Source: a virus
Lineage: Duplodnaviria; Heunggongvirae; Uroviricota; Caudoviricetes
Length of the DNA stretch: 40,176 nucleotides
Virus record (IMG/VR): IMGVR_UViG_2698536646_000014
Strand: one strand, 5' to 3'
Under the pieces are notes generated by a model, which was not told the origin of the DNA, made no database searches, and was given only the letters and a program-made list of their open reading frames with translations. The position numbers and the translations under genes were made by a program. Numbering within the stretch: position 1 is the stretch's first letter; each line of letters starts with the position of its first letter. This document shows positions 3,701 through 34,142 of the stretch, one piece after another.

Positions 3701-4580
3701 TCAGTGGCCTTTGTTGATGCCGTTCCTGCGCTGGAAGACGCCTCCTGAGCCGAAGTCGCGGCCTGTCCGGCTGACGTGCTGGCTGCACGCGCTGAGCCTG
3801 CAGCATCAGTCGCATGGGTTGCCGCCTCACGGGCAGATGTGCCGGCATCACTGGCTGACTTCTTCGCGGCTGCCGTGTTCTGTGCCACCGCGGACGCGTT
3901 ACGCGCCACCTCTTCCACCATCAGTTCAAAACGGCGCAGAGCCTCCGGACGGGCATCATCCTCCGTCATGGCACCGAGAAAATCATTCAGCGTACCGGGT
4001 CGGGAATCTTCATACACGGTGATGGTCCCGGCATGTGACGGCGGGAATCCTTCCACCAACAGAATAACGCTGTACTGACCGTACTCAANNNNNNNNNNNN
4101 NNNNNNNNNNNNNNNNNNNNNNNNNNNNNNNNNNNNNNNNNNNNNNNNNNNNNTTGCCGCCTCACGGGCTGATGTGCTGGCATCGCTGGCTGATTTCTTC
4201 GCGGCTGCCGTGTTCTGTGCCACCGCGGACGCGTTACGCGCCACCTCTTCCACCATCAGTTCAAAGCGGCGCAGTGCCTCAGGACGGGCATCATCCTCCG
4301 TCATGGCACCGAGAAAATCATTCAGCGTACCGGGTCGGGAATCTTCATACACGGTGATGGTCCCGGCATGTGACGGCGGGAATCCTTCCACCAACAGAAT
4401 AACGCTGTACTGACCGTACTCAACGTCCATGCTGTAACGCCCGGCTTCATCCGGATTTTCTGAGGCCAGCGTGTTCACCACCACCGTGGTGCTGTTACGT
4501 TTTGCTTTCAGCTGGATTGTGCAGTTCTGTACCGGTTTTCCTGTGCCGTCTTTCAGTACACCTGAAATCTTTACTGCCAT
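797..4580 (-). CDS. stf: side tail fiber protein Stf, interrupted by two scaffold gaps; reading frame across gaps not recoverable
   Basis: N-terminus [26 protein letters not shown] and C-terminus ...[31 protein letters not shown] match lambda Stf. Ala/Ser-rich shaft with phage-tail-fibre repeats. True start is the ATG at 4580 (track start 4586 is GTG), preceded by GGGGTG. Confidence 0.85.
1067..1570. other. assembly gap (run of N) inside stf
   Basis: Continuous n characters; the translated X-run in the ORF track is an artefact. Confidence 1.
2520..2860 (-). repeat. about 3.3 tandem copies of a 132-bp unit inside stf, encoding a 44-aa tail-fibre repeat
   Basis: Direct repeats gtgctgtt(g/a)gt(t/c)gcact... 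seen three times; protein repeat [44 protein letters not shown] x3. Confidence 0.85.
4089..4153. other. assembly gap (run of N) inside stf, flanked by near-identical duplicated sequence
   Basis: About 265 bp on each side (about 3822-4088 and 4154-4420) are roughly 97% identical, consistent with unmerged contig ends or collapsed paralogous stf copies. Confidence 0.9.
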
Positions 4581-25197: not shown

Positions 25198-25414
25198 TCA
25201 GTGACTTAAGGTTGTGATTCCGGAGGAGTCTTCAGAGAACCAGTAATTCTTCCTGGTAGCTTTCCTTTGTAGGTTATCCAAACATTCTGCGCATCTANNN
25301 NNNNNNNNNNNNNNNNNNNNNNNNNNNNNNNNNNNNNNNNNNAAACCAGTACCCGGCACTACCTGCTGAGGTGCCATAGGCGACACCCGTTGTTAACTTA
25401 TCCATGGATTTCAT
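25198..25414 (-). CDS. S: pinholin (S21-like) with dual-start motif; interrupted by scaffold gap, C-terminal frame unresolved
   Basis: N-terminus [24 protein letters not shown] matches S21 (dual starts at M1 and M4); GAGGTG RBS; remainder lost in the N-run at 25298-25342. Confidence 0.6.
25298..25342. other. assembly gap (run of N) inside the holin gene
   Basis: Continuous n characters. Confidence 1.
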
Positions 25415-31121: not shown

Positions 31122-31771
31122 GCCGCCATCTCCCTGACCAGTTTTTCCGCCTGCTGGCGAACCTGCGCCAGAAACGCCTCACCACATGCCTCAAGTTCAT
31201 CGCGCCCGATGTAGCTGATTGCCGGTCCCTTCCAGGTCTTGTCGAAAACAGCAATAGCACCAGCGAAGAAAGCGCCTGTCGGCACCTGCTTCTCGTCCTT
31301 CGGGATAAACCAGGCAGGCAGTTCAAAACCAATACGCCCGCGAATAAAAGCAATATGATCTGCATCTTCCGGCCACCACACTTCGCTGGTGGCAGCTTTG
31401 ATCAGGAAAACATAGCGTCCGCCCTTATCACGCATGGCACTGGCATGTTTCATGATGTAACGCATGCCGGTGATGTATTGCCCTTCATGCTGACTGGCGC
31501 GGCTGTACGGGGGATTACCAAAGGCAGCACCTTTAAGCTCCGCAAGACGTTCAGACCAGTCATGCGCCAGCGCGTTGTCTTCCGCAGTGTAATAAGCGGC
31601 ACATTTGGCGTTATCACCATCAGTGAACAGATCCAGAACAAACGGGCCAAACAGGGTGTTAATTCCCCAGAAAATGTTATCCGGCGTGCGCCACTGATCG
31701 CCCACTTCCTTCAGTTCATGGGCTGGTTTGTTCCGCAGCTCCACCAGCGCCTGGCAATATTTATTACTCAT
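31118..31771 (-). CDS. phage Dam-family N6-adenine DNA methyltransferase
   Basis: About 217-aa ORF with NPPYS motif (AAFGNPPYSRA); nin-region position typical of small phage Dam methylases. Confidence 0.7.
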   Translation of the reverse strand: MSNKYCQALVELRNKPAHELKEVGDQWRTPDNIFWGINTLFGPFVLDLFTDGDNAKCAAYYTAEDNALAHDWSERLAELKGAAFGNPPYSRASQHEGQYITGMRYIMKHASAMRDKGGRYVFLIKAATSEVWWPEDADHIAFIRGRIGFELPAWFIPKDEKQVPTGAFFAGAIAVFDKTWKGPAISYIGRDELEACGEAFLAQVRQQAEKLVREMAA

Positions 31772-32259
31772 TAAGCCCCCACGTAATTCCCTGACAGATA
31801 CCACTCTTCACCCGATGCAGCGCGCTTGCTGCTTTTCCGTAAGCACCGCTCACGACGCGCCAGAAAATTGTTTCGTTCTGGCTGGGAGTGGCTTTCACGG
31901 AATGCCGCCATCCACACCGTTGCAGCACGACGGTATAAGCCCCTGGACTCCAGTTCTTCCGCCTGGCGGGTCAGGCACAAAATCACCCGGGGATCGTTAG
32001 TGCCGACATAGAAATTGCGCACAGGTCTGGTTTCACGAACTGGTTGTGGTTCCGGCTCCTGCGCTCTCTCAGTCAGGCGTGGGAAATGTCTGCGTGTATC
32101 TCCTTCATAACGGTGAGCCACACGCCCACTCTGACGTAACTTGCTTGCTGACTGCAGAACGCGCTGCCGTGAGTAACCTGCAAAAGCATCCGCAATGTCT
32201 CCGGAAGTACACCCCGGATGGGCTTCAATGAATTTCTGAACTTCATTCAAAAGACTCAT
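31771..32259 (-). CDS. hypothetical protein (possible N-terminal winged-helix regulator)
   Basis: About 163-aa ORF; start ATG preceded by AGGGGGTG; no recognisable catalytic motif. Confidence 0.4.
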   Translation of the reverse strand: MSLLNEVQKFIEAHPGCTSGDIADAFAGYSRQRVLQSASKLRQSGRVAHRYEGDTRRHFPRLTERAQEPEPQPVRETRPVRNFYVGTNDPRVILCLTRQAEELESRGLYRRAATVWMAAFRESHSQPERNNFLARRERCLRKSSKRAASGEEWYLSGNYVGA

Positions 32260-32261
32260 GA

Positions 32262-33080
32262 TCACCCCCTGAATCCTGCCGGGATCTGGCTGTAGTCCAC
32301 GTTGTCGTAACTGGCTTTGAAGTACGGGTCCTCGCGTCTGGCTGCAGATACCGCAGGAACTTCCCAGAATTCTTCGAAATGACGATCCGGACCAAAGAAC
32401 GTGACAGCCTGTTTCACAAATTGTGTGCCGCTGTTACCCATCGCAGATACCCATCCCGCGTAGCGTTTCACACCTTCCAGCATGGTTTCGGGGTTTACTC
32501 CCTCATTCAAACGGGCTTTCCAGGCTTTGAAGGCTGCAGATTTTGAATTGCCACCAGCACGTTTGGGATATGCCAGCCATGCCTGCTCAAACTCCGGAGA
32601 GTATTCCGGTCGGTTTGAACGAACTCGCACGGACTCATCAACTGATGCACCAACAGCTATTGGTTCATTGACTGGTTCTTTGACTGGTTCAAAAGAGTGA
32701 CTGGTTCTGGGTGAATCTCCTGCACTACCCCCTGGTGCAACTCCTGCACTACCTGGTGAATTTGCTGCACCAGATAGTGAATTATTTGCACTACCCCCTA
32801 GTGAATCTCCTGCACCATCCAGATGAAGGAGATAGATATTACTTGAGTTACCTTTTTCACCTTTCCGGGTGACTTTTTTTACCAGCCCGGACTCACAAAG
32901 GGCCGCAATATGATTCATCACAGAACGTTTGCTAATTTCGCACTGGTCAGCAATATGCTGGTAGCTGGGCCAGCACTCACCCTGATCGCTGGCATTATCA
33001 GCCAGCTTGATCAGAACCAGTTTTCGCAATGGATTACCCACTCGAATTTTCATCGCTTTAACCATCAGCTCCATACTCAT
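32262..33080 (-). CDS. replication initiator, lambda O-like (N-terminal wHTH, internal iterons)
   Basis: N-terminal HTH region (KIRVGNPLRKLVLIKLADNASDQGECWPSYQHIADQCEISKRSVMNHIAALCESGLV), Gly/Ser/Ala-rich linker encoded by a DNA repeat array, GGAGGTG RBS. Confidence 0.6.
   Translation of the reverse strand: MSMELMVKAMKIRVGNPLRKLVLIKLADNASDQGECWPSYQHIADQCEISKRSVMNHIAALCESGLVKKVTRKGEKGNSSNIYLLHLDGAGDSLGGSANNSLSGAANSPGSAGVAPGGSAGDSPRTSHSFEPVKEPVNEPIAVGASVDESVRVRSNRPEYSPEFEQAWLAYPKRAGGNSKSAAFKAWKARLNEGVNPETMLEGVKRYAGWVSAMGNSGTQFVKQAVTFFGPDRHFEEFWEVPAVSAARREDPYFKASYDNVDYSQIPAGFRG
32660..32860. repeat. iteron-like direct repeats plus adjacent AT-rich stretch inside the initiator gene (candidate ori)
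   Basis: Repeated units tgactggttc (x3), gtgaatctcctgcac (x2), tgcactaccccct (x2), followed by agatgaaggagatagatattacttgag; same architecture as lambda ori within O. Coordinates approximate. Confidence 0.55.
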
Positions 33081-33313
33081 GCTGCACCTCCGAGATGCTT
33101 CATGTTTTTTCCGGAGCGAAAGGCTATAAGCGGCATACTGACGCGGTAATTACGGCCCAGCGGTTCACAAATCACCTTCTGGCATTCACGGTCAACCAGG
33201 CTAACACGTAGAACATGCCCTGCAGGCGTGGTGTACCACTGCCCAACTGTAGGAATTGATATTTTTTTACGCTGAAGCAAACGGCAAATATTGAGGATCA
33301 ACGGATTAAGCAT
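33077..33313 (-). CDS. hypothetical small protein
   Basis: 78-aa ORF with ATG start overlapping the upstream gene stop by 8 nt (ATGCTTAA); ends 1 nt into the initiator start. Confidence 0.4.
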   Translation of the reverse strand: MLNPLILNICRLLQRKKISIPTVGQWYTTPAGHVLRVSLVDRECQKVICEPLGRNYRVSMPLIAFRSGKNMKHLGGAA

Positions 33314-34142
33314 GACGATGCCCTCCGCTGATATTCAGGAGACGGTGAATATGAAAATTAGCCTTATCCGCCAGACGAATACGTTCAGCTTGCAAGTTAA
33401 GAAGGGTTTCTACCAGAACCTGATGTGCCTGCGGATCCGAAAGAGTTACCTTGCGCAGAGCACGTAGTGCAGTTGTTACATAACTGAGTTTATGTAAGTC
33501 TTCATCATTCAGACGAGTGAGGGCTGGGACAGTAGCCATGATGGCAGCCTCCTTGATCGGTGAAATACTTCCACCACCGGAAACGCCAATTTCGCTGGTG
33601 GTGAACTGAACGGGGTTGGCGTAACCGGTGATCAAGGAAACCGGCGCATCTTTCGATGCCCCCGCCCAGCCCACCATAACTTTGATGTGAGCAAATGCGG
33701 ACGATAAAAAAGACGCTGGCGCGTCATATATCGCCTTGATCAATTCCAGGACGCCAATCCCGGCACCCGCTTTATAAGGTGCCTGAACAGTGTAACGTCC
33801 CGGAATGGCAGAATCAATGTGCTGGTGGTCCTTCACACTCAACAAAATCACGCCTGAATTTCCACAAAGGACTAAAGCACTCATGCGGGTAGTCTTTGCG
33901 AAGATAGATAACGCGCTGTGTTTCTGGCTCCCAACGAATAACATGAACATAAAGTCCTCTTCCGTCACGAAACCAGCGGTTAAGTTCCTGCACAACTCGC
34001 CCCCCACAGTCAGGTAAAGTTCTCTGTGGTTACTTACAGCCAGGTGATTTGGTAATCTGCATTCATGCCGTAACAACAGGTGTTCAGCGACGCTGACCAC
34101 CAGCTGTTGCGACAAACGGTTATTTGCCGTTAAACTGTTCAT
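33306..34142 (-). CDS. hypothetical early-operon protein
   Basis: 278-aa ORF; ATGA overlap with the upstream YdaT-like gene; no family recognised. Confidence 0.45.
   Translation of the reverse strand: MNSLTANNRLSQQLVVSVAEHLLLRHECRLPNHLAVSNHRELYLTVGGELCRNLTAGFVTEEDFMFMLFVGSQKHSALSIFAKTTRMSALVLCGNSGVILLSVKDHQHIDSAIPGRYTVQAPYKAGAGIGVLELIKAIYDAPASFLSSAFAHIKVMVGWAGASKDAPVSLITGYANPVQFTTSEIGVSGGGSISPIKEAAIMATVPALTRLNDEDLHKLSYVTTALRALRKVTLSDPQAHQVLVETLLNLQAERIRLADKANFHIHRLLNISGGHRHA

Follow-up and report, generated by a model that had tools for sequence, protein, structure and literature searches.

The replication initiator gene of an SfV-type lambdoid prophage was analyzed in a stretch of 40,176 nucleotides (nt) from the IMG/VR virus record IMGVR_UViG_2698536646_000014 (Caudoviricetes), herein referred to as the window. 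This gene very likely holds the vegetative replication origin of the prophage, embedded in the coding sequence of its own initiator, as judged from sequence comparisons. A preceding sequence-only reading had placed a dense set of short direct repeats at 32660-32860, inside the part of the gene encoding a flexible Gly/Ser/Ala linker of an O-like initiator, and had likened this arrangement to the lambda origin (ori) in gene O. Both repeat sets found here are located in this interval. The position in the linker and the O-like character of the initiator were confirmed, and the repeat anatomy fits the likeness to lambda ori; the side on which the AT-rich DNA lies differs.

The initiator consists of an N-terminal winged-helix domain, the iteron-encoding linker, a C-terminal helical domain, and a tail resembling the end of DnaT. 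Amino acids (aa) 17-67 match the Pfam family HTH_36 (PF13730) with 44.1 bits at a cut-off of 25 (E-value 1.8e-11), and over its full length the protein matches PHROG 270, 'replication initiation protein' (2.4e-88). The 'replication initiation O-like' labels of PHROG (phrog_8540, phrog_391) were found for the N-terminal half only. Additionally, PHROG 1701, 'DnaD-like helicase loader', matches aa 145-249 (8.8e-33), and a Pfam DnaD_N match at the N-terminus lies just under the cut-off. Phage_rep_O, the Pfam family of lambda O, was not among the Pfam matches of the initiator at E-values up to 0.01, which is a caveat on the likeness to lambda. PDB sequence searches with the whole initiator and with its last 36 residues found no solved structure.

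The main repeat is a 15-base-pair (bp) dyad-symmetric site on the gene strand, GTGCA-N5-T(T/G)CAC, herein referred to as the iteron. Five copies were found at 32711-32815, with start-to-start spacings of 24, 21, 21, and 24 nt (Table 1). In the fourth copy, the 5-nt arms are perfectly complementary, so that the pattern is matched there on both strands. The pattern GTGCANNNNNTKCAC has 6 matches in the 40 kb, as compared with 0.31 expected; all 6 are confined to these 105 bp, and none of 100 shuffles reached this number. A second repeat, GAACCAGTCA, occurs exactly three times in the window (32698-32707, 32681-32690, and 32669-32678; start-to-start distances 17 and 12 nt), together with a partial fourth copy at 32657-32666. 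TRF reported a 24-nt-period array of 4.6 copies at 32711-32815 and a 12-nt array at 32661-32691, and a separate repeat search gave the same families. The repeats of the earlier reading can now be defined as five units of GTGCA-N5-T(T/G)CAC plus three of GAACCAGTCA. No other short-period array was found in the window. The sole other tandem array is a 132-nt repeat at 2549-2853 (2.3 copies, 92% matches), located inside a large minus-strand open reading frame (ORF). No Rfam family reached its gathering score over the repeats, the mir-875 match of 22 bits being at chance level.

The repeats encode the linker, aa 87-142 (LDGAGDSLGGSANNSLSGAANSPGSAGVAPGGSAGDSPRTSHSFEPVKEPVNEPIA), a low-complexity Gly/Ser/Ala segment between the HTH_36 match and an exchangeable C-terminal domain that begins at about aa 142-155. 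Divided into codons, the unit is xGT GCA nnn nnT TCA Cnn. Four wobble positions (T, A, T, and A) are among the invariant bases, as is the base that opens the next codon, and the encoded residues differ between units (G/S, G/N/A, D/N/V, S/A, and L/P). Since the wobble bases are invariant while the encoded residues vary, the conserved iteron pattern tracks the DNA dyad and not the codons or the protein. Variable third positions were also counted in 60 distinct 819-nt alleles from viral contigs, where 5 of 56 sites were variable in the iteron and 12-mer region versus 50 of 217 elsewhere (Fisher p=0.024). The loci had been ranked by the protein identity of the N-terminal domain; the related loci are all 99-100% identical and were used for a count of polymorphism, not of divergence.

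Iterons were found at the same place in relatives of the initiator. GTGCA-N5-TTCAC is present in 5 copies in the window, SfV, and Aeromonas AsXd-1, in 8 copies in cdtI (L006 3063-3947) after a 66-bp duplication, and in 3 intact copies in ST64B (L002 3001-3819), which additionally has two units that no longer fit the pattern. The copy number differs even between near-identical genes, as in cdtI and ST64B. Other sites occupy this position in other phages, namely GTGAY-N5-GTCAC in Vibrio D67 and GGGCAGGAGCTGCCC in Min27, with 3 copies each; Min27-type genes (among L093-L212) have from 1 to about 10 copies. Further dyad sites of the family at the same place include GTGACAGAGAGTCAC, GTGAAAAATCTGCAC, GTGTAAAAATTACAC, and TGCCACCAGATGGCA, among others. 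When viral contigs were scanned for the conserved 12-mer DNA, 120 loci were retrieved, encoding 115 distinct proteins with the same N-terminal scaffold and many different C-termini. In every class, 3 to 6 or more dyad sites of the 5-N5-5 type are spaced at 21-24 bp directly upstream of the conserved element.

In total, at least 9 iteron classes were found in about 95 relatives, each paired with its own recognition helix, whatever the C-terminal domain. For example, the helix SKRSVMNHIAALCESGL pairs with the iteron GTGCAGGAGATTCAC, SRSTVKSHIRALEEMGL with GGGCAGGAGCTGCCC, TRRSAINHIEYLIKMGL with GTGAAAATTTTGCAC, and SKTAVRNHIDALE.MGL with TGCCACCAGATGGCA. One helix/iteron pair occurs joined to three or more unrelated C-terminal domains. 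As seen in tblastn searches, the two halves of the protein (N-terminal, aa 1 to about 140; C-terminal, about 142-272) are exchanged among phages independently of each other by recombination. The pairing is what would be expected of a DNA-binding domain inherited as one unit with its cognate sites, and of the indirect evidence for binding of the repeats by the initiator, this co-variation is the strongest.

The 12-mer repeats form part of an element, AGAACCAGTCACTCTTTTGAACCAGTCAA(T/A)GAACC, that is conserved as DNA across iteron classes and types of C-terminal domain, including the rare Arg codon AGA. A non-circular test of this conservation is confined to relatives retrieved by protein similarity. 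Among these, S135, RAH1, and Stx2a_F451 keep the element. In mEp010 (L217), AACCAGTCA is kept in another reading frame (N-Q-S as compared with T-S-H), and Pseudomonas phi2 (L218) has four GAACCGTCA-type units with a 12-nt period. Because these relatives keep the element while the distant Vibrio D79 is without it, the constraint on the 12-mers, so far as these comparisons indicate, acts on the DNA and within part of the family.

The sequence-only reading had also described an AT-rich stretch following the repeats. Such a stretch is present beside them, at 32816-32880, and is only moderately AT-rich; as the gene lies on the minus strand, in the gene direction it comes before the iterons. The GC content is 0.37-0.38 at 32800-32880, and no 40-mer of the gene is less stable than that at 32820-32860, which ranks at the 98th percentile in the window. 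On the other side of the array, the 12-mer flank at 32650-32700 ranks at the 85-89th percentile. The same two troughs of low stability bracket the iteron array in 76 distinct loci of the family: in about half of them, the least stable 40-mer immediately precedes the first iteron, and in roughly a third it lies over the 12-mer element. The segments 32816-32880 and 32657-32710 are accordingly listed as two candidate unwinding regions, the latter being also a candidate helicase-loading region. The 12-mer block, which occupies the side corresponding to the AT-rich region of lambda, could be a site of unwinding, of helicase loading, or of host-factor binding. No sigma-70-like promoter was found inside the initiator gene. 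A terminator-like hairpin, TCACCTTTCCGGGTGA, followed by a T-run, is located at 32857-32872 on the plus strand, antisense to the initiator and at the edge of the AT-richer flank; it may be a chance occurrence, as 6 such hairpins were found in the scanned region versus 3.7 expected.

Two other explanations of the repeats were considered. The DNA repeats could be a by-product of a flexible, repetitive peptide linker expanded through replication slippage or unequal crossing-over, with no function at the DNA level. The region does encode a low-complexity Gly/Ser/Ala linker, the copy number shifts by whole units, as in the cdtI duplication, and ST64B has the two degenerate units. A peptide repeat requires neither dyad symmetry nor a spacing of 21 or 24 bp, and it does not account for four invariant wobble bases in units whose amino acids differ. 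Furthermore, in relatives, unrelated iterons, and hence unrelated peptides, occupy this place and change in step with the recognition helix, and silent variation is lower in the repeat region. This explanation is therefore considered highly improbable. According to the second explanation, the iterons are true binding sites of the initiator but act as operators or in copy control (autoregulation, titration, or handcuffing), and replication starts elsewhere. Copy control is also a function of iterons in plasmids and in P1, the array is flanked by neither a strongly AT-rich unwinding element nor DnaA boxes, and about 9 kb of the early-left side of the prophage is outside the analyzed sequence. 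The layout is nevertheless that of lambda, P22, and phage L, in which repeats within the gene serve, or are presumed to serve, as the origin. The array is flanked by low-stability troughs throughout the 76 loci, and the 132-nt repeat is the only other array in the 40-kb window. The iterons, 12-mers, and N-terminal domain also move as one module between phages with different partners, as expected for an origin together with its specificity domain. Copy control in place of an origin is thus regarded as unlikely.

Several observations count against assigning the origin to this gene. The polymorphism test is modest, with its loci chosen by N-domain protein identity, and the 120-locus set was retrieved by the 12-mer DNA pattern itself, which makes the 12-mer conservation within it circular. 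In Vibrio D79, an AT-rich stretch stands in place of the 12-mer element. Neither flank is strongly AT-rich, the AT-rich one reaching only about 63% AT, and the AT-richer stretch precedes the iterons in the gene direction, on the opposite side from that of lambda. No DnaA boxes and no consensus sites for IHF were found at 32200-33150 with one mismatch allowed. None of the lambdoid phages that encode only an O homologue has been studied (PMC12315714).

No partner gene of the P, DnaC, or DnaB type, as found at lambda-type origins, follows the initiator immediately downstream. The gene located there encodes a 164-aa protein of the PerC family (Pfam PerC, 7.7e-09; PHROG 1324, 'transcriptional activator'). 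This protein was considered as a possible helicase loader and rejected, being a PerC-family regulator whose gene is absent from the inducible phage cdtI. Since cdtI is without it, the PerC-family gene is outside the replication machinery. A tblastn search of the whole window with nine seeds (DnaC, DnaB, P, and primase-helicase) gave no homologue of a helicase or loader (best E-value 0.19). The earlier statement that no P/DnaC-like loader gene is recognizable downstream holds for the rest of the window as well. Most other C-terminal types among relatives with the same N-terminal domain have a partner immediately downstream, such as DnaC and DnaB, DnaB alone, or a lambda-P-like, DnaC-like, or primase-helicase protein. 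The type with the tail ending in GFRG was never found with a downstream partner gene among these relatives. Since the phage encodes no helicase or loader, the helicase at this origin must be the host DnaB. In a survey of Enterobacterales lambdoid phages, only an O homologue was encoded in 34 of 314; phage LLS is of this type, the replication of which is not understood (PMC12315714); the earlier suggestion that the helicase is recruited through a different partner agrees with this published open question.

The extreme C-terminus of the initiator resembles that of E. coli DnaT. The initiator ends in ...NVDYSQIPAGFRG and DnaT in ...SEPDSQIPPGFRG, with DSQIPPGFRG as its last residues (DnaT was checked against PDB 2ru8_A and 9zbt_D). 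In a BLAST comparison, only the last 9 residues align, with 88.9% identity and an E-value of 0.039 in a database of 9 sequences. No similarity to DnaT was detectable outside the last 9-10 residues, and PDB searches with the whole protein and with the last 36 aa found no DnaT. The N-terminal domain and the three-helix C-terminal domain binding single-stranded DNA, which together characterize a DnaT homologue, were not found in the initiator. The tail is predicted to be disordered, with pLDDT below 50, and the C-terminal core is predicted to be a small helical bundle, presumably the partner-recruiting domain.

The same tail was found on initiators with at least four unrelated preceding domains. 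These are represented by mEp460_4F5 and 569R4; by 689R5 and the 75/02 Stx phage; by Gifsy-2, 666R9, and a Klebsiella phage; and by SPN1S. The SPN1S initiator carries the whole C-terminal domain of DnaT, its last 79 aa being 65% identical to DnaT 101-179. Tail-bearing initiator loci include L219 1748-2563, L010 2299-3369, L011 2257-3345, and L220 1583-2560. A tblastn search with the DnaT tail matched about 46 phage genomes, all with Enterobacterales hosts, nearly always under genes annotated as replication proteins. Among 8 inspected architectures with this tail, 5 have no partner gene, 3 have a DnaC-like gene, and none has a DnaB-type helicase. On the same C-terminal core, the type of tail switches with the type of partner: the tails ...DYGQSDCNW and ...DKFGKSSDKLTF accompany phage DnaC and DnaB, and the GFRG tail accompanies no phage partner. 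Because host DnaT and initiators with four unrelated preceding domains all retain the tail, we conclude that it is probably a portable short motif for a contact with the host.

The repeat anatomy, the constraint at the DNA level, the co-variation of helices with iterons, the absence of a loader gene, and the identity of the tail are direct observations, and they suggest the following course of initiation. Dimers of the N-terminal winged-helix domain would bind the five dyad-symmetric iterons. Since the sites are spaced at about two helical turns, the bound dimers would line up on one face of the DNA in an O-some-like complex. This complex may then destabilize one of the two easily melted flanks, either 32816-32880 or the GAACCAGTCA block at 32657-32710. 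The C-terminal domain and the tail would subsequently bring in the helicase, which is the least certain step. The initiator most likely recruits either host DnaB-DnaC or the PriA/DnaT restart machinery, and the tail ...SQIPAGFRG may be the docking peptide for the host machinery.

For this last step, it is tentatively proposed that (D/Y)SQIP(A/P)GFRG is a docking motif that plugs an origin complex consisting of the O-like protein only into the host partner of DnaT, either DnaB-DnaC or PriA. In that case, DnaB would be loaded with no phage loader, and the GAACCAGTCA 12-mers would mark the site of loading or unwinding. The match to DnaT covers only 8 of 10 residues, and initiators with no partner gene and no such tail were found in Vibrio phages, both of which speak against the proposal, as does the silence of a 2026 paper on preprimosome structures about a role for the DnaT tail (PMC13377028). 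Another possibility, which we hold with similar reserve, is an origin as described above at which the C-terminal helical core contacts host DnaB/DnaC directly, in the manner of DnaA/DnaD-type proteins; the tail would then be irrelevant or would serve proteolysis or regulation. The core is common to relatives with no tail, some of them solo (Vibrio D67 and D79), and it is the segment matched by PHROG 1701. Direct contact by the core does not explain why the type of tail changes with the partner on the same core domain, or why one tail is shared by four unrelated preceding domains and host DnaT.

The coordinates of the features are given in Table 1.

Table 1. Features of the initiator gene and of the gene overlapping its stop codon; positions are those of the window.
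Feature	Position	Strand	Residues or sequence	Basis or remark
Replication initiator gene	32262..33080	minus	272 aa + stop	ORF list, Pfam, PHROG, SfV orf39 identity
N-terminal winged-helix DNA-binding domain	32823..33080	minus	aa 1-86	Pfam match aa 17-67, alignment
Recognition-helix region	within 32823..33080	minus	about aa 49-66, ISKRSVMNHIAALCESGL	co-varies with iteron sequence
AT-richer, easily melted flank	32816..32880			adjoins iteron 1 in gene order; encodes wing of DNA-binding domain
Iteron 1	32801..32815	minus	GTGCAGGAGATTCAC	
Iteron 2	32777..32791	minus	GTGCAAATAATTCAC	
Iteron 3	32756..32770	minus	GTGCAGCAAATTCAC	
Iteron 4	32735..32749	minus	GTGCAGGAGTTGCAC	
Iteron 5	32711..32725	minus	GTGCAGGAGATTCAC	abuts conserved 12-mer element
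Family-conserved 12-mer element	32657..32710	minus	CCAGAACCAGTCACTCTTTTGAACCAGTCAAAGAACCAGTCAATGAACCAATAG	holds three GAACCAGTCA units and a partial fourth
C-terminal core domain	32346..32618	minus	aa 155-245, YSPEFEQAW...TFFGPDRHFEEFW	
Extreme C-terminal tail	32265..32294	minus	YSQIPAGFRG	translation
PerC-family (yfdN-like) gene	31771-32265	minus	164 aa	GTG start overlaps initiator stop codon

The initiator is about 99% identical to the 'replication protein' encoded by orf39 of SfV, and the genes follow one another as in SfV: cI, cro, a CII-like gene, an Ash-family gene, a small ORF, the initiator, a PerC-like gene, dam, a LexA-like gene, and rusA. The initiator gene is located within the early-right operon with cI, cro, and cII, which is the place of lambda O. 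The 951-bp region 32200-33150 is about 98-99% identical to the corresponding DNA of SfV orf39, mEp460, cdtI, and Stx2a/Stx2c-converting phages. Matches to this region were found in 2,719 of 5,426 complete E. coli genomes, and most of the region was found in 882. In E. coli K-12 (the yfdN neighbourhood, match H45 and similar ones), only the first 138 nt of the query are kept; these correspond to the start of yfdN and the end of the neighbouring helix-turn-helix gene, and the iteron region is absent.

Two RNAs were found upstream of the replication gene, both on the minus strand: the C4 antisense RNA at 33594-33681 (Rfam, 82 bits at a gathering score of 45) and the Hfq-binding RNA isrK at 33706-33782 (64 bits at a gathering score of 50). 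Both are located inside a 278-aa ORF (33306-34142) whose Ash-family and PHROG matches start at about aa 103, and the true protein is probably shorter than 278 aa. This segment looks like an antisense-controlled antirepressor module of the P1/Gifsy type, placed just upstream of the replication gene. Masked or unresolved sequence (runs of N) is present at 1067-1570, 4089-4153, 7565, and 25298-25342, all outside the studied region.

No description of the iterons, the 12-mers, or the PPGFRG tail motif, and no function for the tail, was found in the searchable literature, which does not cover the SfV genome paper or the 2006 work of Weigel and Seitz. The latter, 'Bacteriophage replication modules', reportedly treats initiator-only modules as a class, and SfV may already be mentioned there. 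Papers on the 'Eru' Stx phages mention HTH_36 proteins and not iterons. An origin inside an initiator gene is textbook lambda biology, and an iteron array alone would be expected; here, the array was found in a little-described initiator family, and the tail is an interesting lead. The replication module is present in SfV, cdtI, and Stx2a/Stx2c-converting phages, and the replication of Stx phages drives toxin output. The helix/site classes, at least 9 in number, form a natural table for studying and engineering winged-helix specificity and phage incompatibility. The DnaT-like tail, together with the way in which tails track partners, makes helicase loading in phages with only an O homologue experimentally approachable. 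If the tail does act in docking, the motif would also reveal the helicase-recruiting part of DnaT, which was left open by the 2026 preprimosome structures; according to that paper, how DnaT recruits DnaB/DnaC remains unknown (PMC13377028).

E. coli DnaT (primosomal protein I) shares with the initiator the extreme C-terminus (D/Y)SQIP(P/A)GFRG. In contrast to the initiator, DnaT does not bind an origin but works together with PriA and PriB at abandoned forks (PMC13377028). The modules described in PMC12315714 are similar in having a single O-like gene and no helicase or loader, and mEp460_4F5, the phage most closely related to LLS by its repressor and Cro, has an initiator with the same DnaT-like tail; neither iterons nor the tail are described for these modules in that work. 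Iterons inside an initiator gene are established for lambda O and have been described for gene 18 of P22 and gene 18 of phage L (PMC8022706). The latter two genes likewise have their own distinct in-gene repeats, with specificity co-varying with the initiator (PMC8022706). They differ in being accompanied by a downstream gene for a DnaB-type helicase (gene 12), whereas no helicase or loader is encoded here.

In lambda ori, dyad-symmetric direct repeats of about 20 bp are likewise located in the middle of the initiator gene, and the linker they encode joins an N-terminal winged-helix domain, which binds the origin, to a C-terminal domain, which binds the partner. In both cases, easily melted DNA adjoins the repeats, and the gene follows cro and cII in the early-right operon. 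Here, in contrast, there are five sites of another sequence, the initiator matches HTH_36 and not Phage_rep_O, and no P gene is present. The AT-richest stretch is located upstream of the iterons, and the GAACCAGTCA 12-mer block takes the side equivalent to that of lambda.

Iteron plasmids, such as RK2 with TrfA and pPS10 with RepA, have initiator-binding repeats about two helical turns apart and an adjoining unwinding element with short direct repeats (13-mers), and they rely on host DnaB and DnaC. The array described here is similar in its spacing of about two turns and in its position next to a short-repeat element. In these plasmids, the rep gene does not include the iterons, which are recognized by initiator monomers carrying two winged-helix domains. 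The sites in the window differ in having no DnaA boxes, in being part of a coding sequence, and in their dyad symmetry, which suggests binding by dimers.

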